Counted from the first letter of the stretch, positions 275 through 13,461 are shown. The stretch is DNA of 13,756 nt from Candidatus Sumerlaeia bacterium (GCA_038208905.1 JBBQYG010000106.1:1-13756); one strand, 5' to 3'. Notes: a model not told the origin generated them from the letters alone. A program made the numbers and translations.

Positions 275-847
275 ATGCGCCGCGCCTTTACCCTTATCGA
301 GCTTCTCATCGTCGTCGCGATCATCGCGATCCTGGCCGCCATCGCCGTTCCAAATTTTCTGGAGGCCCAGACCCGTTCCAAGGTCAGCCGCGCCCAGGCG
401 GATAACCGGACGATTGCCACCGCGGTGGAGGCCTACATGGTGGACAACAACCGCTACATGCCGTTTGCCGTTCCCGTGCGCGGGCTCATCGGCGAGCAGC
501 AGCTTTACCTCCTTACCTCGCCCATCGCCTACATTACCAGCGTCCCGGCCGACGTCTTCCAGTCCTCCAAGCCGACGCTCTCGACCAACGCCTCCAAGAA
601 CTTCAGCGAATTCTATGGCCCGATCCCGCGCTACTACGTCTATTCCGACAGTACCTTCCTACTCAACGGCAGGACGGGCTGGTCGGTCCGCTGCATGGGG
701 CCCGACACGGACTTCGACTTGGTGGGCCATGTGCCCGACAACGACACCGCGGTGCCAGAGAATGGGAAGTACGACCCGACCAACGGCACGCTCTCCAACG
801 GCGATGTCCTGCGCGCCGGCGGCGGCGTCACGTTCTTCAATAGCTAA
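275..847 (+). CDS. Prepilin-type N-terminal cleavage/methylation protein (GspG/type IV pilin-like), 190 aa
   Basis: MRRA|FTLIELLIVVAIIAILAAIAVP class III signal with E5. GspG-like helix RSKVSRAQADNRTIATAVEAYMVDN, then LTSPIAYITSVPADVF, GPDTD and C-terminal YDPTNGTLSNGD. RBS present. Confidence 0.93.
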   Translation: MRRAFTLIELLIVVAIIAILAAIAVPNFLEAQTRSKVSRAQADNRTIATAVEAYMVDNNRYMPFAVPVRGLIGEQQLYLLTSPIAYITSVPADVFQSSKPTLSTNASKNFSEFYGPIPRYYVYSDSTFLLNGRTGWSVRCMGPDTDFDLVGHVPDNDTAVPENGKYDPTNGTLSNGDVLRAGGGVTFFNS

Positions 848-859
848 GGAATCGCTCCC

Positions 860-1966
860 GTGCCCCCACACACCAGATTCCGCCTTGGCGTCATCGGCCT
901 TGGCGACATGGGCAGCGGCCACTGCCGCGGATTTCACGGGCTCCCCAACTGCGAGATCGTGGGCATCGCCGATCCCGACGAGGGGAAGCTCCGCGTGCAG
1001 GAGTTTCCCTGGGGCGACGCGCCGCCGCCGTTCTTTCGCGACCACCGCGAGATGATTGCGAAGACGCGCCCCGACGCCTGCGTGGTTGTGGTGCCCGATC
1101 ACCTCCATCGCGCCGTGTGCGAGGACGTGATCGAGGCCGGCTGCGACGTGTTCCTCGAAAAGCCCATGGCGACGAACATCGGGGACACCGACGCGATCAT
1201 CGCAAAGGCCCGCGCGGCGAATCGCATCCTGCAAATCGGATTGGTCTATCGGTACTCCAACTTCTATCGCCGCATGGCCGACATCGGGCGCGAGCCCGGG
1301 CACGAGACCATGCTGATGTGGTGCAAGGAACTCCGCCAGTGCTTTCCCCAGCGCCCGTGGTTCTACAGCCAGGCGATGACCGGCGGCAGCATCGTGGAGA
1401 AGGACTGCCACCACTTCGACATTTTCAACTGGGTGATCGGCTCGGAGCCCATCCGCGTCTTCGCCAGCGGAGGTCAGCACGTGTGGAAGCCGGGTTCGAC
1501 CATCGCGTGCGGCTATTGTCCCGATCCGCCGCGCCGCATCGACGAGATTGACACCGTGGACCACGCCATCGTCACGGTGGACTATCGCAACGGCGCCAAG
1601 GCGAGCCTGATCCTGTGCATGTACTTGCAGCCCCAGAACGTGATGCCCGAGGGGCTTGAGATCGGCGGCATCGCGAGGAGCGGGCGGCAGTTCTGCGGAT
1701 ACGGCGACGCGCGCCTCGGCGTGGGCGGGCTCGGCCAGCCGTTCGAGTGGGAGGAGATCGACATGGTCTCCGACAACGACGGCATCGGCCACATCGGCTG
1801 CCAGGAGCAGCGGCGCGACTTCCTGCGCTGTCTGGAAACGCGCAAGGAGCCCTTTGCGAACTGGAAGGTCGGGCGCGATTCGCTGGTCGTCGCGCTGGCG
1901 GCGGAGAAGTCGATCCAGACGGGCCAGCCCGTCGACCTCTCGGAGTATGCCCCATGTCCCGCATGA
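860..1966 (+). CDS. Gfo/Idh/MocA family NAD(P)-dependent oxidoreductase, 368 aa
   Basis: GTG start with AAGGA RBS. Rossmann motif LGVIGLGDMG, VVVPDHLH, VFLEKPMA, LQIGLVYRY, GGSIVEKDCHHFD, and C-terminal ALAAEKSIQTGQPV. Confidence 0.93.
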   Translation: MPPHTRFRLGVIGLGDMGSGHCRGFHGLPNCEIVGIADPDEGKLRVQEFPWGDAPPPFFRDHREMIAKTRPDACVVVVPDHLHRAVCEDVIEAGCDVFLEKPMATNIGDTDAIIAKARAANRILQIGLVYRYSNFYRRMADIGREPGHETMLMWCKELRQCFPQRPWFYSQAMTGGSIVEKDCHHFDIFNWVIGSEPIRVFASGGQHVWKPGSTIACGYCPDPPRRIDEIDTVDHAIVTVDYRNGAKASLILCMYLQPQNVMPEGLEIGGIARSGRQFCGYGDARLGVGGLGQPFEWEEIDMVSDNDGIGHIGCQEQRRDFLRCLETRKEPFANWKVGRDSLVVALAAEKSIQTGQPVDLSEYAPCPA

Positions 1967-3024
1967 CCAATCCAATTCCGCTGCGCGTTTCCGCTCCGGG
2001 GCGGATCTGCCTCTTTGGCGAGCACCAGGACTACCTTGGCCTTCCCGTGATCGCGGCGGCCATCGACCTGCGCATCGAACTCGCGGCCACTCCGCGCGCC
2101 GATGCGCTGTTCGTTGTCGAGATGCCCGACATCGGCGAACGCCTGGAGCTGGACCCCAACATGGAGAACCGCTATCGCCACGGGCGCGACTACATTCCCG
2201 CGGCGGCGAACGTGCTGCGGCGCGAGGGGCTTTCCTGGGCCACCGGCTACGACGTTACCGTGACGAGCGGTATTCCCATCAACGCGGGGGCGTCGAGTTC
2301 TTCCGCGTTGCAGGTGGCGTGGTGCGCGCTGCTGCTGGCGGCGGCGGGCGATCCGCGCGCGGGCGACGCGGAGTCCATCGCGCGTGTCGCGCATCAGTCG
2401 GAGGTCACCGAATTCGATTCCCCCGGCGGCATGATGGACCATTTCTCCTCGGCGGTTGGCGGCGCGATCTGGCTGGACTGCCGTCCACCCTATGCGGTGA
2501 CGGACCTGCCCGCGTGGATGGGCGAGTTTGTGCTGGTGGAGTCGGGAATCCCCAAGGACACCAACGGCGTTCTGGGCGAGAAGCGGCGTCGCGCGGAATC
2601 ACTTGGCGCGGAGCAATTGCTCGACAACGCCGACACGTCGCAACTCTCCGCCGCCGACCGCGCGATCCGCGAGGCCGTGGTGCAGAATCGCAAGCTGACG
2701 CTGGCTGCGCGCGCGCTGATCGAGACCAGCGAGGATGCCGACCTGCTGGGCGTCCTCCTCTCCCGCCATCACGATCAGTTGTCGGGGAACCTGGGCGTTT
2801 CGCTGCCGGAGATCGACCGCCTCTTGGCGCGCGGCATTGGGGCGGGTGCGCTGGGGGGAAAGATCAACGGATCGGGATGCGGCGGATCGTTCTTTCTGAT
2901 GTGCCCGGGCCAGGGCGCGCGGATTGCGGCGCTGTATCGCGGCGTCGGCCTCTCGGCGCACGTTGTCAGGATCGGAAAAGGCGTGGCCGTGGAAGCAGAT
3001 CAACGGATGGAGCTGACATCATGA
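1963..3024 (+). CDS. galK: Galactokinase-like GHMP sugar kinase, about 353 aa (alternative start 1954)
   Basis: APGRICLFGEHQDY (galactokinase GRxNLxGEHxDY signature), IPINAGASSSSA ATP loop, GGMMDH, GALGGKINGSGCGG. ATGA overlap with the upstream stop. Exact substrate is uncertain. Confidence 0.85.
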   Translation: MTNPIPLRVSAPGRICLFGEHQDYLGLPVIAAAIDLRIELAATPRADALFVVEMPDIGERLELDPNMENRYRHGRDYIPAAANVLRREGLSWATGYDVTVTSGIPINAGASSSSALQVAWCALLLAAAGDPRAGDAESIARVAHQSEVTEFDSPGGMMDHFSSAVGGAIWLDCRPPYAVTDLPAWMGEFVLVESGIPKDTNGVLGEKRRRAESLGAEQLLDNADTSQLSAADRAIREAVVQNRKLTLAARALIETSEDADLLGVLLSRHHDQLSGNLGVSLPEIDRLLARGIGAGALGGKINGSGCGGSFFLMCPGQGARIAALYRGVGLSAHVVRIGKGVAVEADQRMELTS

Positions 3025-4382
3025 AGCGAATCTTGGCGGCAATTGCAGTCGTTGTCTCGGCGGTTTCCCCATCGTGGGGCGCGGGGATGAAGTGGCTGGC
3101 GCCGGGCGAGGCGGCGAAGATCACGGGGAAGGCGATCTACTACTTCCGCCAGGATCAGGTGGCACTCTGCATGATTGCGGAGGAGGACGTCTGGACGGAC
3201 CAGCGCGTGATCGCGGCGGCGGGGAGGATGCCATGCGTTCTGATCGATCTCGCCAGCGACAGCGCGACCGGGCTTGCCCGCGAGCACGGTGTCCTGGTGG
3301 TGCCGACCACGCTCCTCGTCGAGAACGGCAAGGAGATCGGGCGGCTCTCTCGCAGCACGAGGCCCGAGGAGTACGTGGCGCTGGCCGAAGGCAAACCCAT
3401 CGCCGCCACGCCCATGCCCGCCGCGCCATCGACCACCACCGCGCGCGTTGTAGAGGCCGCCGATCCCACCGGAGACGGCGCGCCCGCGCCTCTGGACATC
3501 ACGATGGTGAAGGGCGCGATCACTGCGGAGGGGATCAACCTGGAGCTGACGCTGGCAGGGCCCGTGAACACGAGCTTCGCCGCGGCCTACAACTTCTTCC
3601 TCGATGCGGACCAGAGCGAGGCCACCGGCCATGCGGGCGCCGCGTTCAAGGGCGCCGACTTCCTGGTGCAGGGCGCCACGGTGTTCCGCTTCAACGGCAA
3701 GACGCAGGAAGAGTGGGGCTGGGAGCAGATCGGCGCCGCCAAGAATAACGCCGCGGGAAATACCGTCCGCGTGGCGATTCCCGCCCGCCTGATTCCTCCC
3801 TCGCCCGCGCCGTTTGTCTATGCATGCAGCCAGAACGAGCAGTGGACGACGATCGACTGGGCCCCGGCGACGGCGCGGCTGTCGCTGGCCGGAGTCGCCG
3901 CGATCGTGCCCGTGGCCGCGGCGCCCGCGGCGCCGGGCGCCGAGTTCAAGGACGCCGCCGGCGACGGGCCCGGCTCCGAGGATCTCCTTGGCGCTGCGGT
4001 TTCCTCCTCGGGCGACAATCTCGCGATTCGCCTCTCCTTTTCGGCCCCGCCCGTTGTCGAGCGCCAGCACGTGTTCATCGACGCCGACAAGGTCGAGCCA
4101 ACCGGCTACAGCGACGGCGCGCGCAACGGCGCCGATTTCATGATCGAGGGCAACACGCTCTATCGCCACAAGGGGGGCTCCACCGGATGGGATTGGAACA
4201 GCCTGGGCGCCGTGGAGTTCAAGATCGAGGGGAACACGGGCACCTATACGGTTCCGCGCTCGCGCATCGGCGCCAAGGCGGGCGCGGCGATCAAGCTGTG
4301 GTTCACGACGACCGGCGCCGATTGGGCCCCGGCGGATTTCCTTCCCGACGCGGGAACGGTGGAGCTTGTGATTCCCCAATGA
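3021..4382 (+). CDS. Secreted protein, 453 aa: signal peptide, thioredoxin-like fold lacking CxxC, P/A/T linker, two tandem DOMON/CBM9-like domains
   Basis: ATG 3021 overlaps the galK stop. Signal MKRILAAIAVVVSAVSPSWG. LAREHGVLVVPTTLLVENGKEIGRL resembles a thioredoxin C-terminal half. Repeats share DxxGDG, F[LI]DAD...TG[HY], GADF[LM][VI][QE]G and WxW..[IL]G. Confidence 0.8.
   Translation: MKRILAAIAVVVSAVSPSWGAGMKWLAPGEAAKITGKAIYYFRQDQVALCMIAEEDVWTDQRVIAAAGRMPCVLIDLASDSATGLAREHGVLVVPTTLLVENGKEIGRLSRSTRPEEYVALAEGKPIAATPMPAAPSTTTARVVEAADPTGDGAPAPLDITMVKGAITAEGINLELTLAGPVNTSFAAAYNFFLDADQSEATGHAGAAFKGADFLVQGATVFRFNGKTQEEWGWEQIGAAKNNAAGNTVRVAIPARLIPPSPAPFVYACSQNEQWTTIDWAPATARLSLAGVAAIVPVAAAPAAPGAEFKDAAGDGPGSEDLLGAAVSSSGDNLAIRLSFSAPPVVERQHVFIDADKVEPTGYSDGARNGADFMIEGNTLYRHKGGSTGWDWNSLGAVEFKIEGNTGTYTVPRSRIGAKAGAAIKLWFTTTGADWAPADFLPDAGTVELVIPQ
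3459..4376 (+). repeat. Protein-level tandem duplication of a ~140-aa domain (about 3459-3885 and 3948-4376)
   Basis: FFLDADQSEATGH...GADFLVQGATVFRFNG...WGWEQIG aligns with VFIDADKVEPTGY...GADFMIEGNTLYRHKG...WDWNSLG. An Ala/Pro linker separates the copies. Confidence 0.85.
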
Positions 4383-7300
4383 TCATGCGCCGCCCGATCT
4401 ACGCCCTCGCCGCCGCGATGGTCATGGCCTCCGCGATTCCGGCGGAGATTTCCCTCCAGCAGAAGGGGAACCAGATATACATCGTCCGCGATGGAGTCCT
4501 CGTCTCCCAGCGTCCCGCGCGCTTCGTGGTGCAGGAGTGGCAACGCCGCCAGGCCGACGCCCCCGCCAACGCTGCGCGGGCCGGTGTTGGGTCCATCGTG
4601 GAGACCGACGCGCTGGAATCGGTGCTTCTCTCTCCGGCCAATGACGCATGGACCGAAGAGCCTGTCTCCGTCATTGTCGGGGAAGGCAACGTCTATACAC
4701 AGGAACTCGTCTTTCCGCGAGAGCTTTCGGTCACAGCCGAATGGTCCGCGGAGAACGGAGGCGTCCGCGTGAGGGGCAAGGTGCGCAACCTTTCCACCAC
4801 GGCGGAGCGGCGCGAGATTCCGATCACATTCTCGCTCGCGATTCCCGTCGATGGAGAATCGCTGACGTGGCTGGCCGACAATCATCGAAGCGAGGCCATC
4901 GAGGGCACGACCGAGATCCTCAACACCGTGGCCACCATGGCGGGCCCTCGCGGCGCGATGTCGCGCTATCCCTTTGCCGCCATCGCGGGGGATCGGCAGC
5001 TAGCCGTGGGGATGCCGCTGGATCAGCCGCGCATCCAGCGCCTGCTGTGGGATGGCAAGCACCGCGCGCTGGTGGCGGAGGTTGACGTGACGATCAGCCC
5101 CGACACGGAGAAGTTCCCCGGCTATGTTCCATTCGATTTCATGCTCTTCGATTTCGAGGCGGAATTCGGCTTTCGCTCCGTCGCCAACGCCTACTACGCG
5201 CTGAATCCCGATTCCTATTCCACCCGCATCGACTATCAGGGCCAATGGATGCCCTTCACCCAGATCGACAGTGTCCAGCGCGCCGAGGATTTTCGCTTCG
5301 CGTTTCACGAGTACCACCCCAATGTCTCCGTCGCCTACAACACCGCGCAGGGGATCGAGTCGCTGGTCTATTGCGAGCCGCCGGTGCAGTACATCAACGT
5401 TGCGGCGAATGTGCCGAAGGAGCTGGCTTCGCTCCTTGGGATTCTCGATGGCATGGGGAACACGCAGGGCTCCCAGGTGCGGGGCTCGGGGACGTGGGAC
5501 CGCTCGGGTAACCTTCAGGCCGCGTGGGTGGAGACGCCGTGGGCCGTGGGCGCGCGCGTGCCCACCAACGGCGATCCCGAACTGCCGCGCACCGCGCGCA
5601 ACCCGCACAACAGCTTCGACGCCAACTGGCTGCCCTATCGCGACCTGTGGCAGCGCCGCGCAGAGGACCAGCCCGCCGCGTGGAATGGCGGGCGCATCAT
5701 GGAGGGGGTGGTCGGCGCCTCGGGCCGCGCGCTGAACCTGCGCGCGGGCGAAAGCAGCGAACTCGTCCTCTCCAACGCCGCCGACCTCAAGCTCTCGATC
5801 ACCGCCATGGGCGCGCCCGGCGCAACGGTACGCGTGGGGATCGGCGACGCAGCGCAGGCGTTTCCGCTCTCGCGCAGCTTCGCCGCGCTGGAGTTCGCCG
5901 CTTCCGCCGCGCCGGGGGCGTCGCTCCGACTCACCGCCCAGGGCGGCGATGTCTATATAGACAGCATCACGGGAGCAGACGCCGCCCTCGCCAATGCGCA
6001 GTTCGACGCAGGGCGTCTCGATGAGGAGGCTGTGACAGGGCTGTATCTCGACAGCTTCGAGGGATGGGATTCCAAGGACCTGAATTTCCGGCGCGAGCAC
6101 TTCGCCACGTCGGACTATCCGCTGACCTTCGATGCGCGCACGGGCGAAACGGCGCAGGTCATCATGATGCACAATTTCGAACTCGCCGCCGAGGCGCGCC
6201 GCCGCCTTCACGCGCGCGGCGACCTGCTGATGGCCAACACGGCCCTCTATCAGTGGTCGTGGAGCGCCCACTTCCTCGACGTGCTTGGCATCGAGACCTC
6301 CTGGGGAGAGGGCGAGCGCATTGTGCCGCCCAAGATCGCCGATCTCGACTACCTGCGCACGATGCTCTATCACAAGCCCTACTGCTATTTGCAGAATCTG
6401 CGCTTCGACATGTTCCGCGGCCAGAAGGTGGAGGACTACTTCGCCCGCTGCCTGCACTATGGGATGTGGCCGAGCTTCTTCAGCTTCAACGCCGCCGAGG
6501 AGCCCTATTGGCAGAACCCCGGTCTATACAACGCCGACCGCGCCTACTTCCTCACGTTCATGGAGCCCCAGGGCCGCATGACGCGCGGCGGGTGGGAGCC
6601 TATCACGCTGGCCGCGTCGGCGAACAGGGAACTGCTGGTCGAGCGATGGGGAGGCGGCGCGTGGAAGGGAGAGCCGCTCTCCGCGGAGTCCTTCTACATC
6701 AGTATCTACAACCCCAGCGAACGGATGCAGTCCGGCGATTTGCGCGCGGATGCTCGGCTCACGGCGGAGACTGCCTATCTCGTGCTGGACGCACTGACCG
6801 GGCGCAGCGTGGAGAACCTCCTTGGCCGCGATGGATCGGTGCCCGTGCGGTTGAGGTCGCTCGGCGTGTCGTCGCTGTGGTTCGTCGCGCGGACGGAGGT
6901 CGCGCTGGGATCGGTGCTTCGGCAGGAGGTCGGCGAATTGCTCCGCCTCTCGGGGAAGTATCAGCGCTATGGCTTGATCGACGCGGCGACCGTTGCCGCG
7001 CTGAAGTCGGCGCTGGCTGCCGCGACACCGTCGGAGAGCGAGAAGGAAATTGCCAAGCTGCTGTCCACCGTGGGCGGCGAATACCGCGCCGAGATCGAGC
7101 GCTCCTATAGCACGTGGCGCATCGCGTCCGCCGCGTTGGAGGAAGTCCGCGGCGGCAAGGTGGAACCCATCGCGCTCCCGCGGAGCATTGCGCGCGGCGT
7201 GGAGTATCGCATTCAGGCGCCCGCCAGTTCTCCCGTTGAACTTGAACTGAAAGTCACCACCTCCGCCGGGGAGCATAACATCGCATTTCGCGATGGCGTG

Positions 7301-8173
7301 GCGCAGTTTGTGGCTCCCGCCACACTGGAGGACGGCGTCGCGATCGGGTTCCTGGTTTCGCGCGCGGGCGCGGCGGGATTCGCGCCGTATCTGGAATCGT
7401 CGGCGGTGCTGGTGCCGCCGGTGGAACTACTCGGCCTGCCGCGCCGCGTGGTGGTGGGTCCGCCCACGATGCTGACGGTGGCCGTCAGGAACAACCTGCC
7501 GACGAAGGCCGTCGGTGAAGTGTCGTTCGCCGCGAGCAGCCTCGCCTCGGCGTCGCCGGTGCCGCTCGAACTCGCCCCCGGAGAGGAACGCGCCATCCAA
7601 CTCCGCCTCGTTGCCGCAAGCCGCCCGGCAATGGACATGCACGAGCCGCTGGCCATCGGGTGGAACGCGGGCGACGACGATGCGGGCGCGGCCTCCGCGG
7701 AGGTGCCGCTGGTGCTGCTCTCCGCCGACGCCAGCCTCCTGCGCACGAGCGGCGTGACCGTGACGGTCGATTCATTCTACTTTGGATACGACAAGCTGGC
7801 GATCACCGATGGCGTGCGCGATGGCGCTGGTCTCGACTGGACGGAGGCCGCGTGGGCCAGCGACGAGGGCATGGTCCCGCACTGGGCCCAGTTCGATTTC
7901 GAGAAGCCCACGATGCTCCGCGAGGTGCGGATATTCTGGGCCTTCGACAGCGGCAAGCACTGGACCTCCCGCGAGCTGACCGTTGAGGGCTGGCGCCCCG
8001 GCGCAACCGCGTGGGAGGTGCTCGCGCGGCACGGCGACGGGACATTGGTTCCCGAAACGCGCCTCGCGTTTCCCGCGGGCGAATATACACGCATCCGCCT
8101 GTACCAAGCACCGGGTGGCGGCGCGGCGGAGCGGCCCGGCCTGCTGTGGCTTGGCGAGGTGGAGGCGCGATGA
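4379..8173 (+). CDS. Large secreted multidomain putative glycoside hydrolase, 1264 aa, with inserted CBM-like domain, Ig/NEW3-like domain and C-terminal F5/8C (discoidin/CBM32-like) domain
   Basis: ATG 4379 overlaps the upstream stop (alternative 4385). Signal MIMRRPIYALAAAMVMASAIPA. Aromatic-rich core with YCEP, GLYLDSFEGW, LLMANT and LDVLGIETSW. LTVAVRN...LAPGEERAI is Ig-like. AITDG...AWAS...PHWAQFDFEKPTMLREVRIFW...LWLGEVEA is discoidin-like. The CDS is secure; hydrolase function is inferred. Confidence 0.75.
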   Translation: MIMRRPIYALAAAMVMASAIPAEISLQQKGNQIYIVRDGVLVSQRPARFVVQEWQRRQADAPANAARAGVGSIVETDALESVLLSPANDAWTEEPVSVIVGEGNVYTQELVFPRELSVTAEWSAENGGVRVRGKVRNLSTTAERREIPITFSLAIPVDGESLTWLADNHRSEAIEGTTEILNTVATMAGPRGAMSRYPFAAIAGDRQLAVGMPLDQPRIQRLLWDGKHRALVAEVDVTISPDTEKFPGYVPFDFMLFDFEAEFGFRSVANAYYALNPDSYSTRIDYQGQWMPFTQIDSVQRAEDFRFAFHEYHPNVSVAYNTAQGIESLVYCEPPVQYINVAANVPKELASLLGILDGMGNTQGSQVRGSGTWDRSGNLQAAWVETPWAVGARVPTNGDPELPRTARNPHNSFDANWLPYRDLWQRRAEDQPAAWNGGRIMEGVVGASGRALNLRAGESSELVLSNAADLKLSITAMGAPGATVRVGIGDAAQAFPLSRSFAALEFAASAAPGASLRLTAQGGDVYIDSITGADAALANAQFDAGRLDEEAVTGLYLDSFEGWDSKDLNFRREHFATSDYPLTFDARTGETAQVIMMHNFELAAEARRRLHARGDLLMANTALYQWSWSAHFLDVLGIETSWGEGERIVPPKIADLDYLRTMLYHKPYCYLQNLRFDMFRGQKVEDYFARCLHYGMWPSFFSFNAAEEPYWQNPGLYNADRAYFLTFMEPQGRMTRGGWEPITLAASANRELLVERWGGGAWKGEPLSAESFYISIYNPSERMQSGDLRADARLTAETAYLVLDALTGRSVENLLGRDGSVPVRLRSLGVSSLWFVARTEVALGSVLRQEVGELLRLSGKYQRYGLIDAATVAALKSALAAATPSESEKEIAKLLSTVGGEYRAEIERSYSTWRIASAALEEVRGGKVEPIALPRSIARGVEYRIQAPASSPVELELKVTTSAGEHNIAFRDGVAQFVAPATLEDGVAIGFLVSRAGAAGFAPYLESSAVLVPPVELLGLPRRVVVGPPTMLTVAVRNNLPTKAVGEVSFAASSLASASPVPLELAPGEERAIQLRLVAASRPAMDMHEPLAIGWNAGDDDAGAASAEVPLVLLSADASLLRTSGVTVTVDSFYFGYDKLAITDGVRDGAGLDWTEAAWASDEGMVPHWAQFDFEKPTMLREVRIFWAFDSGKHWTSRELTVEGWRPGATAWEVLARHGDGTLVPETRLAFPAGEYTRIRLYQAPGGGAAERPGLLWLGEVEAR

Positions 8174-9225
8174 TCGCCACGATGAAACACTCGACGCTCG
8201 CTGCGGGGCAGATCCTTGCGCAGGGTGAAGTCCAGCGACTTCTTGCTGCGCCGTTCGCGGCAAGTGGCGATCTCGATGCTGCGCTGCGAAACCTGGGCGC
8301 ATGGCTGGAATCCATCGGCTACTTCGCGCACCTGACCGACACCAACGAGCGACTGAGCTTCCGCGACGACGCGTTGGGCCTGATGTTGCGCCTGCAAGTC
8401 AACTACTCTCGCCTCGCCTACCGCAGCCCCGCCGCCGACCGCCGCGTGGCGTGCCCGCTCTGCATCGAGAACATCGGCACTCCGGGCAAGGAACTGCTCC
8501 GCGTGTTTCATTTCGCGCTGGCCGGGCGGCCCTTCTTCTCGCATCCCACGCCGTTCCCCCTCTGCGAAGGTCACTTCGTCGTCAACTCGCTCGCGCACGA
8601 ACCGATGGCCATCGGGGAGCGCGGCTTGCGCGAATCCGCGGACTTCGTCGCGCAAACGCAGTCGTGGCTCGTCGCCTCCAATAGCGATGTGGAATGGGCC
8701 GGCGCGTCGGTGCTGGGGCACCACCACATGCAGGTGTTCGCCGGCCTCGTGCTGCCGCTGGAGTCGGCGCACCCGCTGCACGATCTTACACTATCCGAAT
8801 GCGAGGGATCCTTTCTCGACTGGCCCTGTCCGGTGGTTCGCCTGGCGGGAGATACGGAACCGACGCTCGCAGCCGCCAGCCGACTGATCGCCGCGTGGAA
8901 GGCGATTGATCCGGGCAAGGCCACGTTCAACTCCCTGATGCGTAGGAAGGCAGGCGGCGGACTCGCGATTCATCTGCTGTTTCGCCATCCGGACTTCCGG
9001 ACGCAGGAACCGTTGCGCCAGATCAAGTCCGAGGGAATCGGCATCATCGAAATGGCGGGCGAGGTGATCGTGCCGCCGATCGCGGGGAAGTCGCGCGAGG
9101 AAAACCGCGCATACTTCGAGCGCGAGGGACTTGCCGTCATCCGCGGAATCATCGGCCAGAACGCCCCATGGCCGGCCCAGTGGACGCCGGAGTGGTTTGC
9201 GGATCTGGCGCGGAAAATCGGATAG
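8170..9225 (+). CDS. galT: Galactose-1-phosphate uridylyltransferase-like protein (class II / Gram-positive-type GalT, HIT superfamily), 351 aa
   Basis: ATG 8170 overlaps the upstream stop (alternative 8182). CPLCIENIG, AGASVLGHHHMQ (HxHxQ; compare GGSILSHDHFQ) and IKSEGIGIIEMAGEVIVP (compare HIKKENIGLIEVMGLAILP). Shares an operon with a galK-like gene. Confidence 0.8.
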   Translation: MIATMKHSTLAAGQILAQGEVQRLLAAPFAASGDLDAALRNLGAWLESIGYFAHLTDTNERLSFRDDALGLMLRLQVNYSRLAYRSPAADRRVACPLCIENIGTPGKELLRVFHFALAGRPFFSHPTPFPLCEGHFVVNSLAHEPMAIGERGLRESADFVAQTQSWLVASNSDVEWAGASVLGHHHMQVFAGLVLPLESAHPLHDLTLSECEGSFLDWPCPVVRLAGDTEPTLAAASRLIAAWKAIDPGKATFNSLMRRKAGGGLAIHLLFRHPDFRTQEPLRQIKSEGIGIIEMAGEVIVPPIAGKSREENRAYFEREGLAVIRGIIGQNAPWPAQWTPEWFADLARKIG

Positions 9226-9369: not shown

Positions 9370-10533
9370 ATGAAGAAGACAGCCTTTCTCGCTCCCATCG
9401 CCGCCGCCCTCGCGATCCTCGCGTCGTCCGCAACCGCCCAGGTCTGGAGCCCGGGCATCGTCATCGATGGAAACTTCGACGACTGGGACGGTCAGGTGCC
9501 CGCCCTGATTACGGACGTGACCGGCGACGGCGGCACCGGCCGTGACATCGTCGCGATCTACCTCGGCAACGACCAGAACAACCTCTACGTCCGCATTCAG
9601 GGCGCCAACGCCGATGCGTATGACGGCAGCGAATTCTCCGGCATTGACAAGGACAACAACGTGGCCACGGGCTTCAACCTGTTCGGCGCGGGCAAGGGAT
9701 CCGAGACGATGGTCGCCGGCGCCAGCGTCGTTGGCCAGGCCGGGGGCGCATTCAACGAGGGCGCCGCAACGCCGGGCTCCGTTCCCTTCGGGCCGTTCGT
9801 CGCTTCGACTGACATTGAGTACGCGATCGCGCTGAACACGGTCGTCCCCACCGCCATCGCTTCCTTCCCGGCCCTGGGCCAGATCATTGGCTTCGTGTAT
9901 GGCGACGGCAACGGCGGCGCGACCGACGTCGCCAGCGGCGACTACACCCTTGCCACCGGCTCGGCGGCGACGCCGGGCGCGACGATCGATCTCTTCGCGA
10001 ACTACGGAACCAATGCCGCGGGCAAGACGCGCGACGGCAGCCCCACGGGCGGCTTCTCCGCCGCGCGCAGCAACTTCGCCCCGGGGGGCCCGCTCGGCGT
10101 TGCCGACACCGCGCTCGGCGTCAGCCACACCACCGCCGCCGTGGACTTCGGCCTTTCGCTGGTCACGCATCGCTTCGCCACGCCGGTGAATATCACCGGC
10201 CACAACCGCGTCACGCTGGACGTTTTCGGCAATGCCGCGGCCGCCAACAAGAACCTCTGGCTTGGCCTCGTCGATACCGGCGGAACCTACTATGCCGTCG
10301 GCGCGGTCTTCCCCACCACCGCAACCTGGACCACTGTGGACGTCGGCCCGACGAGCGGTTGGTTCTCTCAGGTGGCCGGAGACGACAACGTCCTCGACCT
10401 CGCCAACATCGTCGAGTGGCGCATCGGCCTTCAAGAGACCACCCCCGCCGCGCCGGGCACCTTCGCCGTGGCCTATGACAACCTGCTGGCGCCGACAACG
10501 GCCGGCGTCGCCGAATGGATGACGATGGAGTAA
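9370..10533 (+). CDS. Secreted non-catalytic carbohydrate-binding-like protein, 387 aa (DOMON/CBM9-like + CBM11-like domains, short Trp-containing C-terminal tail)
   Basis: Signal MKKTAFLAPIAAALAILASSATA|Q. First domain IVIDGNFDDW, DVTGDG...DI...NDQNNLYVRI, IDKDNNVATGF. Second domain PVNITGHNRVTLDVFG...WTTVDV...LDLANI...AVAYDNL. Ends AGVAEWMTME. Confidence 0.8.
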   Translation: MKKTAFLAPIAAALAILASSATAQVWSPGIVIDGNFDDWDGQVPALITDVTGDGGTGRDIVAIYLGNDQNNLYVRIQGANADAYDGSEFSGIDKDNNVATGFNLFGAGKGSETMVAGASVVGQAGGAFNEGAATPGSVPFGPFVASTDIEYAIALNTVVPTAIASFPALGQIIGFVYGDGNGGATDVASGDYTLATGSAATPGATIDLFANYGTNAAGKTRDGSPTGGFSAARSNFAPGGPLGVADTALGVSHTTAAVDFGLSLVTHRFATPVNITGHNRVTLDVFGNAAAANKNLWLGLVDTGGTYYAVGAVFPTTATWTTVDVGPTSGWFSQVAGDDNVLDLANIVEWRIGLQETTPAAPGTFAVAYDNLLAPTTAGVAEWMTME

Positions 10534-10568: not shown

Positions 10569-10603
10569 CGGCGGGCGGCGCGGGATGCGTCGCCCGCCGT
10601 TTT
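10569..10603 (+). terminator. Intrinsic terminator between convergent genes
   Basis: 13-bp stem CGGCGGGCGGCGC / GCGTCGCCCGCCG (one G-U), GGGAT loop, then TTTT. Starts 35 nt after the stop at 10533. Confidence 0.8.
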
Positions 10604-11272: not shown

Positions 11273-12736
11273 CTACTTTCCTTTCGGGCTGTTGTCGCGG
11301 CGATCCTTGGCGGGCCCCGCAACGGAGGAGAGAACCTTCACCGGCCAGTCATAGACCAACTGCAGGAGCACCGCATGAGCCGGGAGGGCCTTGGCCTCGG
11401 GCACACTTCCCAGAAGCGCCTGGGCCGCCGCCCCCAACCCCAGCATCGCCCCAAACACCACCGCGAAGGGCGCCAGCCCCGATGACTGCCCGCCCGCATC
11501 CCCGCCGTGGCGCAACCAGTCCAGCGTCACGCCAAAGATGAGTGGCGCGGCGCCCCCGCTGAGAGCAACGAGCACCTGGAACACGGTGTTGCCGATAACC
11601 TGATCCTCCCGCGGGATGGTCGCCAGCACCAGGCGCATCTGGGCAATGGCGTGGGCCGCGTTGAAGACCCCAAACAGGAAATAGGCCCCGCCCACCAGCC
11701 ACAGCCCCGGCTTGAACAGGTGGAGTCCGGCCGCCGCCCAGAACGCGCATGCCGCCAACAGCGCCCCGCCAGAGAGGCGAATTAGCGGGCGGCTCCCCAC
11801 GCGGTCGCTCAGCGAGCCCCAGTAAACCGCCGTCAGCAGCACCCCCAGCATGGTGAGCGACTGAAACTTGAGCACGGCGCCATCGGGCCAGCCGAGTTCC
11901 TCGCGGACGAAGAGCACCAGATAGACAGGGAGCGCGGCGAACGCGAAGGTCATCATCAGCACATAGCGCGTGGTGCGGCGGAACCCGGGAAGCGCCCACA
12001 GCTCCAGCGCCTTGCGCCAAATATCGGCCAGCGACCAGTTGGGCGGGCGGGCGGCGGAGGAGGAGAGGCGCGCGGGCTCTGGCGCGCGGCGCAGGCAGAG
12101 GACGCTGCCCATGCCGGCCGCCCATGCGAAAACGAACAACGCCCCGAATCGCCAGGCCGGAGGATCAGAGCCAAGGAACGCGCCGCACCCCAGCAGCGTC
12201 AGGAAGGCGCAGATGTTCATCACGCTCTGCTCCTTTCCCAGATACTGGCCGCGCTGCTCCTCGGGCACCACCTCCGCAATCCACGGGAACCAAGCCCCCG
12301 ACGCAAAACCGCGGATCGCGTTGAACCCCGCCACCGGCAGAATGAGCGCCACCGTAAGGAACATCGTCGAGAAGCCGTGGCTGGCCATCAGCGGCAGCGG
12401 CGCAATCAGCAGCAGCATGTAGGATCGAAGCCCCCAGCCCCACAGCAGCATCCGCTTGCAGCCGAAGCGATAGACCAGGTTGGTCGCGAAAAGCTGAAGC
12501 ATCACCAGCAGCGGCTGGATCGAGTTCAGGATGCCGATGGCCGACTCGCCTGCGCCCAGATACCGCGCCGTCAGCACCAGCGGCGCCCCCAGCGCGATGG
12601 TGAAGTTGACAGAGTTCAGCCCCTGAAAATAGAGAAGCCATCGAAGTTCCGGCGGAAGCGGCGGGGGAGCATGGTGGGGCTGGCGCGAAGACACGCGGGC
12701 AAGCCTTGGGCGGGGGCCAATCCGTGTCCAGCCCAT
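11273..12736 (-). CDS. MFS transporter (start uncertain: 12754, 12736 or GTG 12694)
   Basis: About 12 hydrophobic segments. LVYRFGCKRML and WGSLSDRVGSRPL (MFS motif A copies), WIAEVVPEEQRGQYLG. Stop lies 4 nt before the MOSC start. Confidence 0.9.
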   Translation of the reverse strand: MGWTRIGPRPRLARVSSRQPHHAPPPLPPELRWLLYFQGLNSVNFTIALGAPLVLTARYLGAGESAIGILNSIQPLLVMLQLFATNLVYRFGCKRMLLWGWGLRSYMLLLIAPLPLMASHGFSTMFLTVALILPVAGFNAIRGFASGAWFPWIAEVVPEEQRGQYLGKEQSVMNICAFLTLLGCGAFLGSDPPAWRFGALFVFAWAAGMGSVLCLRRAPEPARLSSSAARPPNWSLADIWRKALELWALPGFRRTTRYVLMMTFAFAALPVYLVLFVREELGWPDGAVLKFQSLTMLGVLLTAVYWGSLSDRVGSRPLIRLSGGALLAACAFWAAAGLHLFKPGLWLVGGAYFLFGVFNAAHAIAQMRLVLATIPREDQVIGNTVFQVLVALSGGAAPLIFGVTLDWLRHGGDAGGQSSGLAPFAVVFGAMLGLGAAAQALLGSVPEAKALPAHAVLLQLVYDWPVKVLSSVAGPAKDRRDNSPKGK

Positions 12737-12805
12737 CGTTCCCGCGCCTTGCATTTGTCGCCCCGCGTGGCTGACCGAGCGGCCAATTGCGGGGGGGGAA
12801 AGCCC

Positions 12806-12896
12806 TTGACACCCGGCACCCTCCAAACGTCCCTTGGAACTCCGAAAGCGTTGTTTTTCAAGACTTTTGGGATACCCAAAGACCCCCATTGGAGGA
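12806..12896 (+). promoter_or_regulatory. Possible promoter/leader of the lipoprotein gene
   Basis: TTGACA at 12806-12811 with no convincing -10. Hairpin TTTGGG-ATA-CCCAAA at 12866-12880. Strong RBS GGAGGA at 12891-12896. Confidence 0.35.
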
Positions 12897-12903
12897 TTGT
12901 CTG

Positions 12904-13461
12904 GTGAAATTCCTGAGACTGCTTCCCGCCTTGCTCGTTGCGATCGCCCTCTTGGCCTCTGGTTGCGGAGAGAGCGCGCAGGAGAAGGAAATCAAGGAGC
13001 TCTCGACGAGCCAGAAGGACCTCGCCGCGAAGGTTCAGCAGACGACCTCGGAGATCAATTCGACTCTCGGCGAGCTGAAGAAGGAAAAAGACGCCCTTTC
13101 CGCCGCGCTTTCCGGCCTTCAGGAAAGCAAAGTCCGCCTTGAAGTTCGCCTTTCCGATCTCGATTCCAAGATCGGCAACCTGAACGCCATCGTTAAGTCC
13201 AACGTGGACGAGTTGACGGCGAAGGAAGCGGCACGCGCCGCCAGCGGCGGCGGCAGCTTCTGGCGCCTGCTCCTGATCGTCATCATCGTCGTCGTCATCC
13301 TGATCGTGATCATCCGCATCCTCCGCTCGCGCAGCGAGTTCGACGACGAGGAAGAGGACTACGAGGACTTCGAGGACGACGAGGACCTTGGCTTCGAGGA
13401 CGACGAGGAGTTCGAGGACGAGGACACCAGCAACAAGAAGAAGAACAACGACGACGTCTGA
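12904..13461 (+). CDS. Lipoprotein with long coiled coil, C-terminal transmembrane helix and acidic tail, 185 aa
   Basis: GTG 12904 after GGAGGA. Lipobox MKFLRLLPALLVAIALLASG|C, then about 89 aa of heptad pattern, SGGGS, TM LLLIVIIVVVILIVII, basic RILRSR and a D/E-rich tail. Confidence 0.88.
   Translation: MKFLRLLPALLVAIALLASGCGESAQEKEIKELSTSQKDLAAKVQQTTSEINSTLGELKKEKDALSAALSGLQESKVRLEVRLSDLDSKIGNLNAIVKSNVDELTAKEAARAASGGGSFWRLLLIVIIVVVILIVIIRILRSRSEFDDEEEDYEDFEDDEDLGFEDDEEFEDEDTSNKKKNNDDV

Follow-up and report, generated by a model that had tools for sequence, protein, structure and literature searches.

A 13,756-nucleotide stretch of DNA from a Candidatus Sumerlaeia bacterium, hereafter the window, carries a gene for a large multidomain protein (referred to as the target) next to genes for a putative sugar kinase and a putative nucleotidyltransferase, which raises the question of what this protein does and whether it belongs to any named enzyme family. 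A first-pass annotation of the sequence had proposed an unclassified glycoside hydrolase, possibly akin to alpha-galactosidases or alpha-N-acetylgalactosaminidases, feeding GalK and GalT. The following genes and signals were recognized around it.

275-847, + strand: prepilin-type protein of 190 aa with an N-terminal methylation motif (Pfam N_methyl, 3.2e-7)
860-1966, + strand: GFO/IDH/MocA NAD-binding oxidoreductase of 368 aa (Pfam GFO_IDH_MocA, 3e-22)
1954-3024, + strand: GalK-like GHMP sugar kinase of 356 aa (Pfam GalKase_gal_bdg, GHMP_kinases_N and GHMP_kinases_C)
3021-4382, + strand: secreted 453-aa protein (sec453) of no known family (GC3-phase frame switch, signal-like N-terminus)
4379-8173, + strand: target gene, coding for a secreted multidomain protein of 1264 aa from an unnamed family
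8170-9225, + strand: GalT-like HIT-type nucleotidyltransferase of 351 aa (partial match to NCBIfam type-2 GalT; Pfam DUF4922, 0.002)
9370-10533, + strand: 387-aa protein of no known family (no match in Pfam; found downstream in five of the eight orthologous loci)
10569-10599, + strand: terminator-like hairpin whose 14-pair stem precedes a T run (consensus scan only)

The gene that had been annotated at 4379-8173 is real. Its open frame stops at 8173, its likely start at 4379 is an ATG sharing four bases (ATGA) with the stop of the upstream gene, the GC content at the third codon position stays between 0.76 and 0.91 in this frame over the whole gene length, and the translation begins with a signal-like stretch. 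Signal-like N-termini were detected by a heuristic in 82 of the 124 relatives that begin with M, and the target protein is probably exported. The two motifs singled out in the first pass lie exactly where they had been placed, GLYLDSFEGW at 6038-6067 (one match in the window and none in 200 shuffles) and LDVLGIETSW at 6275-6304 (residues 633-642).

The GalK-like and GalT-like neighbors that had been reported also proved genuine. All three Pfam domains of the kinase score above their cut-offs (PF10509, 42.2 bits for a cut-off of 23.1; PF00288, 42.4 for 22.3; PF08544, 37.4 for 21), GalKase_gal_bdg with an E-value of 5.7e-11, and the best solved match is the galactokinase chain 6q8z_A (4.8e-20). 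Against the NCBIfam galactokinase model the kinase reaches 105.6 bits, far under the cut-off of 443, and the mevalonate kinase model does nearly as well (95.5 bits for a cut-off of 163); the sources name the orthologue variously, once as 'mevalonate kinase'. The GalT-like protein, whose ATG overlaps the target stop codon, scores 43-70 bits against type-2 GalT models with cut-offs of 628-1223, over residues ~90-250 only, and gave no match to PF01087 GalT. It contains a His-His-His-Met-Gln stretch, and the active-site motif of GalT is of the His-x-His-x-Gln type.

No signal peptide was seen in the GFO protein. Its best solved relatives are GH188 NAD+-dependent sulfoquinovosidases (8QC3, 4.7e-25; 8QC2, 4.3e-23), the match spanning residues 7-261, and its orthologues are 61-68% identical in all eight loci examined. 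As described for SqgA (GH188), the active site comprises Tyr136, Glu163, His193 and His321 (PMC10755693). Within a numbering uncertainty of about one residue between chain and paper, equivalents of the Tyr, the Glu and one His appear to be kept in the GFO protein, and the region of the fourth residue, His321, was unaligned in this comparison. Active-site residues of the SqgA type are in part common to GFO proteins at large. The sec453 protein gave no Pfam match at E≤5 and is internally duplicated, residues 151-300 aligning with 301-453 (30% identity over 155 aa, E = 1.7e-16). The genome contains numerous paralogues (36 HSPs) of the prepilin-type product, which falls below cut-off for all NCBIfam pilin models. 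The hairpin at 10569-10599 is the probable end of the plus-strand unit.

Four consecutive overlapping junctions connect the GFO gene through to the GalT-like gene. All eight Sumerlaeota loci with a full-length orthologue show the gene order GFO, GalK-like, target, GalT-like, sec453 standing between the GalK-like gene and the target in seven of them and a prepilin-type gene accompanying the cassette in seven; the GalT-like gene adjoins the target in all nine genomes that carry a full-length orthologue. Since the cassette order is kept in every one of the eight loci, the tie to GalK and GalT proposed in the first pass is far stronger than adjacency. Neither a transporter nor an epimerase was found in the conserved cassette. 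In the genome, which is 93.9% complete, the kinase of the window is the sole GalKase_gal_bdg match, no PF01087 GalT was found, and the kinase/transferase pair is the only such pair detected. The same pair lies directly behind a GH123 gene (GH123_cat, 1.6e-56) in the sister Sumerlaeota genome G060 and adjoins a longer GalK-signature kinase in genome G064; GH123 enzymes are beta-N-acetylgalactosaminidases. Across the wider family, tblastn found a GalK/GalT-like pair at 3 of 80 loci, all from Sumerlaeia, and in about 11 of 23 loci at least one of the four nearest ORFs is a carbohydrate gene. Neighbors outside the Sumerlaeia clade are heterogeneous, so that different members of the family may act on different sugars.

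This family is large. Searches recovered 1135 cluster representatives at E≤1e-3, 788 at E≤1e-10 and 329 at E≤1e-30, and of 599 pattern stretches in species genomes at least 478 proved to be members. Matches occur in 17 of 75 Sumerlaeota, 17 of 31 Armatimonadota, 6 of 31 Verrucomicrobiota and 2 of 41 Planctomycetota genomes (seed genome included in each count), and members are also present in other, mostly uncultured phyla. In the tree, the 13 Sumerlaeia-type proteins group together as a single clade (support 1.0). As the first-pass annotation had suspected, no named family in the libraries searched accounts for the core of the target or its relatives. Residues 1-1134 of the target matched nothing in Pfam or NCBIfam; the core gave no Pfam match in 40 relatives at E≤0.001 or in 30 at E≤10, and no NCBIfam match in 28 members; and PDB sequences searched by phmmer, and with two profiles at E≤10, gave no core match. 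Judged by these searches, the target belongs to a large family unnamed in Pfam, NCBIfam or the sequences of solved structures.

The protein divides into the following regions, all encoded on the plus strand.

4379-4444, + strand: signal-like N-terminus, residues 1-22 (read from the translation)
4805-5638, + strand: core block 1, residues ~143-420 (column occupancy 0.9-1.0 in distant relatives)
5651-6013, + strand: insertion of ~120 aa, residues ~425-545 (Sumerlaeia-type clade only)
6014-6658, + strand: core block 2, residues ~546-760 (conserved columns, residue counts)
6050-6052, + strand: codon of Asp558, candidate catalytic nucleophile, within the motif at 6038-6067
6293-6295, + strand: codon of Glu639, candidate acid/base, within the motif at 6275-6304
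6659-6892, + strand: beta-sandwich after the core, residues ~761-838 (hhalign to GH123_N/GHL6-type proteins)
6896-7153, + strand: clade-specific linker, residues ~840-925 (occupancy ≤0.06 in distant relatives)
7154-7678, + strand: probable Ig-like beta-sandwich region, residues ~926-1100 (hhalign to NPCBM_assoc segments)
7706-8170, + strand: likely discoidin/F5-8 type C (CBM32-like) domain, residues ~1110-1264 (Pfam, relatives, PDB profile)

Matches of relatives to the target fall in a two-block pattern. Near-invariant residues of block 1 are D236, R266, W290, D304, E311, Y331, E333 and W388, and block 2 holds D558, N620, D634, E639, R660, N673, W739 and E755. In the Sumerlaeia clade the two blocks are split by the insertion, which has an occupancy of 0.04 in distant relatives, gave no Pfam match and weakly resembles a CBM-like N-terminal module of distant relatives (hhalign 11.7%, E = 0.0025). 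Of the acidic residues in the family, the two best conserved are those that the first pass had picked as catalytic, Asp in YLD and Glu in GIETSW: among 131 aligned rows of relatives, Asp558 is D in all 131 and Glu639 is E in 130 and D in one, followed by E311, D634 and E755 (129 each). Even the most remote member found keeps equivalents of D558, N620, D634 and E639. Asp558 and Glu639, 81 residues apart, each lie where a hydrophobic strand-like stretch ends and are the best candidates for a catalytic pair, in which they would act as nucleophile and acid/base, respectively. By analogy with known glycosidases, the apparent strand/helix spacing of the core might be read as a TIM barrel, and a retaining mechanism with alpha specificity may be envisaged on the same analogy.

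The beta-sandwich that follows the core aligned with a 7-sequence profile of GH123_N/GHL6-type proteins at a probability of 91.4% (hhalign, E = 9e-7, 90 columns) and with a 3-sequence profile at 83.7%, and 5 of 30 relatives have weak Pfam matches to Melibiase_C or Malt_amylase_C; profile similarity thus makes it homologous to the sandwich of GHL6/GH123_N-type proteins. A crude and noisy propensity profile hints that the linker behind it is probably helical. For the Ig-like region that had been annotated next, the evidence is divided: the corresponding region of the orthologues (~925-1105) is linked to NPCBM_assoc segments of five relatives (hhalign 65.4%, E = 5.9e-5, 73 columns), but the target itself has no Pfam match there even at E≤5. 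The C-terminal discoidin domain is likely, as previously suggested, for 24 of 35 relatives match it in Pfam at E≤0.1 (best 5.8e-12) and a profile of the relatives matches discoidin modules solved from a Paenibacillus glucanase/chitosanase (5.4e-5), though the target scores 23.2 and 23.5 bits, below the Pfam cut-offs of 28.2 and 27.8 (PF00754 and PF22633, residues 1135-1240). CBM32 modules often bind Gal or GalNAc; the nearest solved matches of the target domain are chitosan-binding modules, not galactose-binding ones. Accessory domains were detected in 13 of 40 relatives (F5/8 type C in six, NPCBM_assoc in five, and also CBM9, CBM4_9, SLH and Big_2), and minimal members of 610-700 aa comprise barely more than the core and its sandwich.

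Comparison of the core with glycosidase profiles by hhalign gave no link to GH31 (0.2%), GH36 (0.7%), GHL6 (0.1%), DUF6259 (2.7%) or GHL10 (9%), nor to GH2, GH123 or GH128-like profiles (≤1.5%). GH27 reached 21.7% with a 2-sequence profile, which aligned the last strand-like core segment and the sandwich, and 8.2% with a 9-sequence profile, whose alignment covers the C-terminal domain only. The likeness to GH101 raised in the first pass was not upheld: neither the target nor 30 relatives match Glyco_hydro_101 (PF12905) or GH129 in Pfam, and one automatically picked, probably wrong ORF of a GH101 locus scored 0.1%, a weak test. The templates were thin and devoid of secondary structure, and among controls in the same set-up GH36-GH31 scored 84.1%, GH27-GH36 98.5% and GH27-GH31 just 20.3%. 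Because GH27 and GH31 are true partners, a real link to clan GH-D could be missed. The named clusters nearest to the target in a protein atlas are GH123_N, GHL6 and DUF6259 (0.96), to be taken as leads only.

We propose, with a probability of roughly 0.5, that the target is a secreted enzyme, a glycoside hydrolase from an unclassified family, predicted to release a galactose-type sugar. Outside the cell, and perhaps assisted by sec453, it would cut such a sugar (Gal or GalNAc) or short oligosaccharides off a glycan. After uptake, the GalK-like kinase would form the sugar 1-phosphate, the GalT-like enzyme would convert it to a nucleotide sugar, and the GFO protein might either oxidize the sugar or be an NAD+-dependent cytoplasmic glycosidase acting on imported oligosaccharides. 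The hydrolase activity, the barrel fold, the roles of D558 and E639, the identity of the sugar and the order of these steps are inferred. More tentatively, the target could both found a new glycoside hydrolase family and be the extracellular entry enzyme of an undescribed galactose/GalNAc-glycan pathway of Sumerlaeota. If so, the family would comprise more than 1000 sequence clusters, be common and multi-copy in Armatimonadota, and have a catalytic domain unrelated at the family level to any solved structure, and the pathway would combine a secreted helper and a GH188-like NAD+-dependent cytoplasmic glycosidase with a minimal, divergent kinase/uridylyltransferase pair replacing the canonical Leloir enzymes.

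The homologous sandwich would also be expected of a very distant member of an existing CAZy family, be it clan GH-D-like, GHL-type or a recent family lacking a model, in which case the family would be unannotated and not new. Through this sandwich module GH123_N/GHL6 proteins also connect with DUF6259 (95.7%) and, weakly, with GH27 (41%), and the 2-sequence GH27 profile, the low GH27-GH31 control and the protein-atlas neighbors point the same way. Yet none of 30 members has a Pfam catalytic-domain match at E≤10, two profiles drew no core match from the PDB, the GH27 signal fell and retreated to the C-terminal domain with the larger profile, GH31, GH36 and GHL6 stayed at or below 0.7%, and among the source names seen all are 'hypothetical' save one 'discoidin domain-containing protein', so that we regard such a membership as unlikely. 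Doubts about the sugar bear on another part of the proposal. A glycoside hydrolase freeing something other than galactose or GalNAc, with a GHMP kinase and a HIT-type transferase salvaging another sugar 1-phosphate, would make the 'Leloir' label wrong, and it would agree with the low kinase score and variable naming, with a transferase at ~70 bits (cut-offs ≥628) whose match to type-2 GalT models is confined to their middle part, and with a GFO enzyme whose closest solved relatives act on sulfoquinovosides. We think this improbable in view of the galactose-binding signature above its Pfam cut-off, the galactokinases that are the best solved relatives of the kinase, the placement of the pair behind GH123 in G060 and beside a longer GalK-signature kinase in G064, and a genome in which no other GalK or GalT was found.

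It seems quite improbable that the target is not a hydrolase at all, but instead works as a transglycosylase or polysaccharide lyase, or has no catalytic function and serves at the surface or in adhesion, with its conserved acidic residues binding metal or sugar. The lack of a catalytic family match of any kind, the many binding-type modules and the prepilin-type gene at seven of the eight loci speak for it; against it, about 28 near-invariant residues, eight of them acidic, are spread over ~500 residues, a pattern more in keeping with the active site of an enzyme than with a surface for binding, minimal members have little beyond core and sandwich, and the cassette couples the target to sugar-activating enzymes. 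An unclassified secreted glycoside hydrolase releasing a galactose-type sugar remains our preferred reading.

Among known systems, the putative glycosidases GHL6 (PF14871), GH123_N (PF19543) and DUF6259 (PF19773) come closest to the target in architecture, with a homologous sandwich directly after the catalytic region, a similar size, layout and set of accessory modules (Laminin_G_3, CBMs), and the same phyla. However, the catalytic regions of GHL6 and DUF6259 fail to align with the target core, the GH123_N/GHL6 profile aligns with the target at the C-terminal sandwich only, and no family member among the relatives searched matches the three Pfam models. GHL6, DUF6259 and GH123_N link to one another at 58-96%. 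In enzymes of clan GH-D (GH27, GH36, GH31), a barrel carrying the Asp nucleophile on its fourth strand and the acid/base on its sixth lies between an N-terminal beta domain and a C-terminal Greek-key sandwich. The layout of the target and its D558-E639 spacing would fit this plan, but its second acidic residue would be Glu, not Asp, and no significant profile link was obtained. GH101 and GH129 share with our proposal the idea of an Asp nucleophile, a downstream Glu acid/base and a Gal/GalNAc-related context; membership of the target in either is unsupported.

Salvage modules of the Leloir and GNB/LNB types combine a sugar 1-kinase with a hexose-1-phosphate uridylyltransferase, and a similar pair flanks the target. 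Unlike in those modules, both enzymes of the cassette score far under the curated cut-offs, the match of the 351-aa transferase to type-2 GalT models is partial, and the cassette includes a GFO oxidoreductase but neither an epimerase nor a transporter. Catalysis by GH123 enzymes is substrate-assisted and relies on neighboring Asp and Glu residues; the target family shows no conserved pair of this kind, and hhalign against a single GH123 sequence (1.1%) indicated no sequence relation. In G060, however, GH123 sits beside the kinase/transferase pair in a place comparable to that of the target, and since its gene lies directly before the pair, this analogy suggests that GH123 in G060 and the target play comparable roles as the sugar-releasing enzyme of the module.

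The gene at 4379-8173 had been described in the first-pass annotation as coding for a candidate glycoside hydrolase, and what had been observed of it proved largely right: it starts at 4379, has a signal-like N-terminus and is 1264 aa long, and GLYLDSFEGW and LDVLGIETSW, the motifs holding the candidate catalytic residues D558 and E639 (numbering of this protein throughout), were found encoded at 6038-6067 and 6275-6304, respectively. The window is an entire contig (13,756 bases) of a genome that measures 4.24 Mb in 301 contigs, is 93.9% complete and, judged by its named relatives, belongs to Candidatus Sumerlaeota. Gene limits in the window were set by GC content at the third codon position, which gave the following map.

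Genes of the window
275-847, +, prepilin-type (N_methyl) gene
860-1966, +, GFO/IDH/MocA gene
1954-3024, +, GHMP kinase gene (GalK-like)
3021-4382, +, gene for a secreted 453-aa protein
4379-8173, +, candidate glycoside hydrolase gene
8170-9225, +, GalT-like gene
9370-10533, +, gene of no known family, 387 aa
10639-11322, minus, MOSC gene
11273-12889, minus, MFS gene
12787-13461, +, coiled-coil ORF, 224 aa

All four junctions from the GFO gene to the GalT-like gene, which delimit a five-gene cassette, overlap, with ATGA at three of the four. A strong hairpin of terminator type is found at 10569-10599. The 908-aa ORF at 1656-4382 of a mechanical ORF list is in fact two genes in different frames. 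Searches of the window for Rfam families, tRNAs and notable repeats returned none. At the contig start, 5′ of the prepilin-type gene, a 26-nt inverted repeat (3-28 and 122-147, 85% complementary) has its arms 93 nt apart, and the coiled-coil ORF at 12787-13461 ends in an acidic Asp/Glu-rich repeat with a 9-nt period (13336-13424, +). The secreted 453-aa protein (3021-4382, +) belongs to no known family and contains an internal duplication (residues 151-300 versus 301-453, 30% identity, E = 1.7e-16).

We compared eight orthologue loci of the cassette, namely seven further Sumerlaeota regions, two of them on contigs of earlier loci, and locus L004. The order GFO, GalK-like, candidate hydrolase, GalT-like was kept in all eight; the 453-aa protein gene between kinase and hydrolase and the prepilin-type gene were each found in seven, and the 387-aa gene in five. 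One of these loci lies in a genome assembled as a single contig of 3,289,105 bases (G066), where the genes flanking the cassette are AXA37334 to AXA37340. Of 75 Sumerlaeota genomes, 14 have the GalT-like gene, which adjoins the hydrolase gene in 9/9 of those with a full-length orthologue of the latter. Five genomes carry it without the hydrolase gene, and in three of the four examined it follows a GalK-type kinase: the order is ROK, kinase, transferase in G049; an ORF of unknown function (523 aa), GH123 (GH123_cat, 1.6e-56), kinase, transferase in G060 (L183, G060:C251, 1879-5982); and a GalK-signature kinase of 471 aa, then transferase, in G064. In G060 the GalK-like/GalT-like pair goes together with another sugar-releasing enzyme. 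The cassette kinase is the only galactokinase-signature match in the genome of the window, where no PF01087 GalT was found. Conserved gene order gives strong support to the functional link to GalK and GalT proposed at first. The prepilin-type gene has many paralogues in the genome (36 HSPs), and in some Verrucomicrobiota, Omnitrophota and unnamed-bacterium loci (L016, L030, L040 and L053) similar genes are found close to members of the family.

Beyond Sumerlaeia the association is not kept. In tblastn searches of the window's proteins against the best 80 family loci, GalK-like and GalT-like genes were nearby in three only, all Sumerlaeia. Neighbours outside Sumerlaeia were heterogeneous in a scan of 90 ORFs from 23 loci; full flanks were available for 29, of which the other six, and one further ORF, were left out for size. 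About 11 of the 23 had carbohydrate-related genes as neighbours, among them GH2, GHL10, GH123, WbsX, GH128-like, DUF4962/heparinase, GxGYxYP, CBM4_9, Laminin_G_3, ThuA and GFO. The best solved relatives of the cassette's own GFO/IDH/MocA protein (860-1966, +) are 8QC3 and 8QC2 (4.7e-25 and 4.3e-23; next entry 3.1e-18), identified in PMC10755693 as ArSqgA and FlSqgA, NAD+-dependent sulfoquinovosidases of GH188. Three of the four GH188 active-site residues given in that paper seem to be kept in the alignment, with an uncertain numbering match and residues partly generic to the fold. The GFO protein could be an ordinary sugar dehydrogenase or, in the cytoplasm, an NAD+-dependent glycosidase.

The family itself is large. 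When 1.84 billion cluster representatives were searched exhaustively with HMMER, 1135 matched at E≤1e-3, of which 788 also reached ≤1e-10 and 329 reached ≤1e-30; the matches fall in two blocks (query 90-395 and 525-740) with a variable gap between them. Of at least 599 pattern matches in species-representative genomes, at least 478 were confirmed. The best 80 of these at least 478 loci came nearly all from MAGs of Sumerlaeia, Planctomycetota, Verrucomicrobiota, Armatimonadota, Hydrogenedentota, Omnitrophota, Poribacteria, Anaerolineales and Limnocylindrales, and Lentisphaerae. A search for shorter proteins yielded one fragment and nothing more.

Genomes with a match, by phylum (counts include the seed genome; E-value limits differ between phyla)
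Sumerlaeota, 17/75 (12/43 high-quality), E 1e-10
Armatimonadota, 17/31, E 1e-60
Verrucomicrobiota, 6/31, E 1e-60
Planctomycetota, 2/41, E 1e-40

The Armatimonadota genomes sampled often hold several copies, with a maximum of 8 matches per genome at the limit given above. The Armatimonadia genome G079 has 31 matches at E≤1 in at least 10 genes of 870-1543 aa, a strong paralogue expansion (loci L135, L137, L139, L141-L161 and L166-L174) that includes the divergent L161. The gene of the window is single copy in its own genome and had no match in plasmid and phage collections; GC content is 0.668 for the cassette versus 0.645 for the genome. A FastTree phylogeny built on 601 core columns unites the 13 Sumerlaeia-type rows in a single clade (support 1.0). 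The gene of the window is also present in freshwater, sediment and microbial mat metagenomes, where contigs of four DNA runs, each from a different study, cover 29-30 of 30 bins; nearly all pieces were ≥95% identical, with no insertions or deletions listed, and none of the listed sequencing runs with the gene was an RNA run.

Column occupancy in a 91-row alignment gave the domain map below; propensities calculated from the alignment by a Chou-Fasman-type method were too noisy for use.

Domain map of the protein
Residues 1-22, signal-like N-terminus
Residues 23-140, N-terminal region, shared in part
Residues 143-420, core block 1
Residues 425-545, insertion in the close clade only (occupancy 0.04)
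Residues 546-760, core block 2
Residues 761-838, shared beta-sandwich
Residues 840-925, linker specific to the clade
Residues 926-1100, Ig-like region
Residues ~1110-1264, discoidin domain

Both accessory domains at the C-terminus had been proposed from the sequence. In Pfam the protein matches only two discoidin models, which overlap at residues 1135-1240 and score below the gathering threshold; the domain is nonetheless likely, as it is matched by 24 of 35 relatives, is carried by 6 of 40 more distant ones, and makes the family profile match solved discoidin modules (5.4e-5). The Ig-like region found moderate support only. Comparison of the clade-specific core insertion (5651-6013, +, ~120 aa) with the CBM-like module that distant relatives have at the N-terminus instead showed a faint resemblance below significance (hhalign 11.7%, E = 0.0025), which may reflect a domain relocation. 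In one relative of 787 aa (P0084), the C-terminal part (residues 542-675) gave weak PHB-depolymerase-type esterase matches (4e-5, far below cut-off), which may reflect a fusion or chance.

Residue conservation was counted over 131 aligned rows.

Most conserved residues (rows of 131 with the same residue)
D558, 131
E639, 130, plus 1 D
R660, 130
W739, 130
E311, 129
D634, 129, plus 2 E
E755, 129
D236, 126
D304, 126
E333, 124

The most remote member found, the 961-aa product of L161 (hhalign link 95.9%, 503 columns; no Pfam match), retains equivalents of D558, N620, D634 and E639. Block 2 shows hydrophobic strand-like stretches with conserved polar ends every 20-60 residues (Y-x-D558, M-A-N620, G-x-E639, x-x-N673, P-x-F-F-S702), and block 1 a like pattern (W290, H-E311, Y-x-E333). 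We read this spacing, as an interpretation of the sequence rather than a result, as what would be expected of a (beta/alpha)8 glycosidase. Signal-like N-termini were predicted heuristically in 82 of 124 relatives. Probable export, binding modules and the enzyme-like invariant acidic and aromatic residues of the family together suggest, in our reading, that the protein is a glycoside hydrolase. The GH101/GH129-like barrel suggested in the first-pass annotation, with an Asp nucleophile, a Glu acid/base and an alpha-retaining mechanism, would be one hypothetical form of such an enzyme. The cassette argues that it would release a galactose-type sugar, which would then be 1-phosphorylated and uridylylated; given the GH123 gene beside the same kinase/transferase pair in G060, GalNAc is as plausible as galactose.

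That the protein could not be placed in a named family was upheld within Pfam, NCBIfam, PDB sequences and limited profile comparisons. It had no match in NCBIfam, or in PDB sequences at E≤1. Two profiles, one built from 35 relatives and the other from 91, matched accessory parts but not the core when the whole set of PDB sequences was searched (E≤10); these parts were discoidin, the CBM-like module at the N-terminus of distant relatives, and the C-terminal domain of an alpha-amylase (E = 0.96). On the conserved core, Pfam gave nothing in 40 relatives (E≤0.001) or in 30 mostly short ones (E≤10), and NCBIfam nothing among 28 members. The source names seen were all "hypothetical protein" or absent, save one "discoidin domain-containing protein". 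Literature text searches found no description of the family, a weak result since a nameless family escapes text search. We also compared the family profile by hhalign with small profiles of known families built from genomes covered by the analysis, using ORFs picked automatically from loci, of which the GH101 ORF at least, and possibly two more, were in wrong frames. No link was found between the core and GHL10, GH123, GH31, DUF6259, GH101, GH36, GHL6, GH2, GH128-like, WbsX, GxGYxYP, heparinase II/III and GH27, and still none after 10 divergent Armatimonadia paralogues were added to the family profile.

hhalign probabilities for the family profile and for controls
Family vs GH31 (5 sequences), 0.2%
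Family vs GH36-type (12 sequences), 0.7%
Family vs GHL6 (8 sequences), 0.1%
Family vs DUF6259 (11 sequences), 2.7%
Family vs GHL10 (2 sequences), 9%
Family vs GH2, GH123, GH128-like, WbsX, GxGYxYP, heparinase, ≤1.5%
Family vs GH27, 21.7% (2 sequences), 8.2% (9 sequences)
Control GH36 vs GH31, 84.1%
Control GH27 vs GH36, 98.5%
Control DUF6259 vs GHL6, 57.9%
Control GH27 vs GH31, 20.3%

Judged by the controls, the 20.3% for GH27 versus GH31 included, these negative results are informative without being proof.

More than 1000 sequence clusters resemble a secreted carbohydrate-active enzyme and are nameless in Pfam, NCBIfam and PDB, a gap in every CAZyme census that covers Armatimonadota, Verrucomicrobiota, Planctomycetota, Sumerlaeota and other uncultured groups like them. 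The function is unusually accessible in the Sumerlaeia clade: there the gene is fixed in a cassette of five, together with a sugar 1-kinase and an enzyme resembling uridylyltransferases, which makes guesses at the substrate directly testable. If activity were demonstrated, the family would count as a new one among the GH families, and predictions of carbon cycling in these phyla would shift accordingly; should dbCAN or a fold search assign it to an existing family or clan, the gain would be limited to better annotation.

One positive link came from the post-core beta-sandwich. Compared with the sandwich at the C-terminus of Laminin_G_3/GH123_N/GHL6 proteins, it scored 83.7% when 3 sequences were used and 91.4% (E = 9e-7) with 7, robustly suggesting homology of this module. 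The same sandwich joins those proteins to DUF6259 (95.7%), and a protein-atlas feature search, taken as a lead only, placed GH123_N, GHL6 and DUF6259 as the nearest clusters (0.96). Although its catalytic region has no match in theirs, the protein thus resembles the GH123_N/GHL6/DUF6259 putative glycosidases in its layout.
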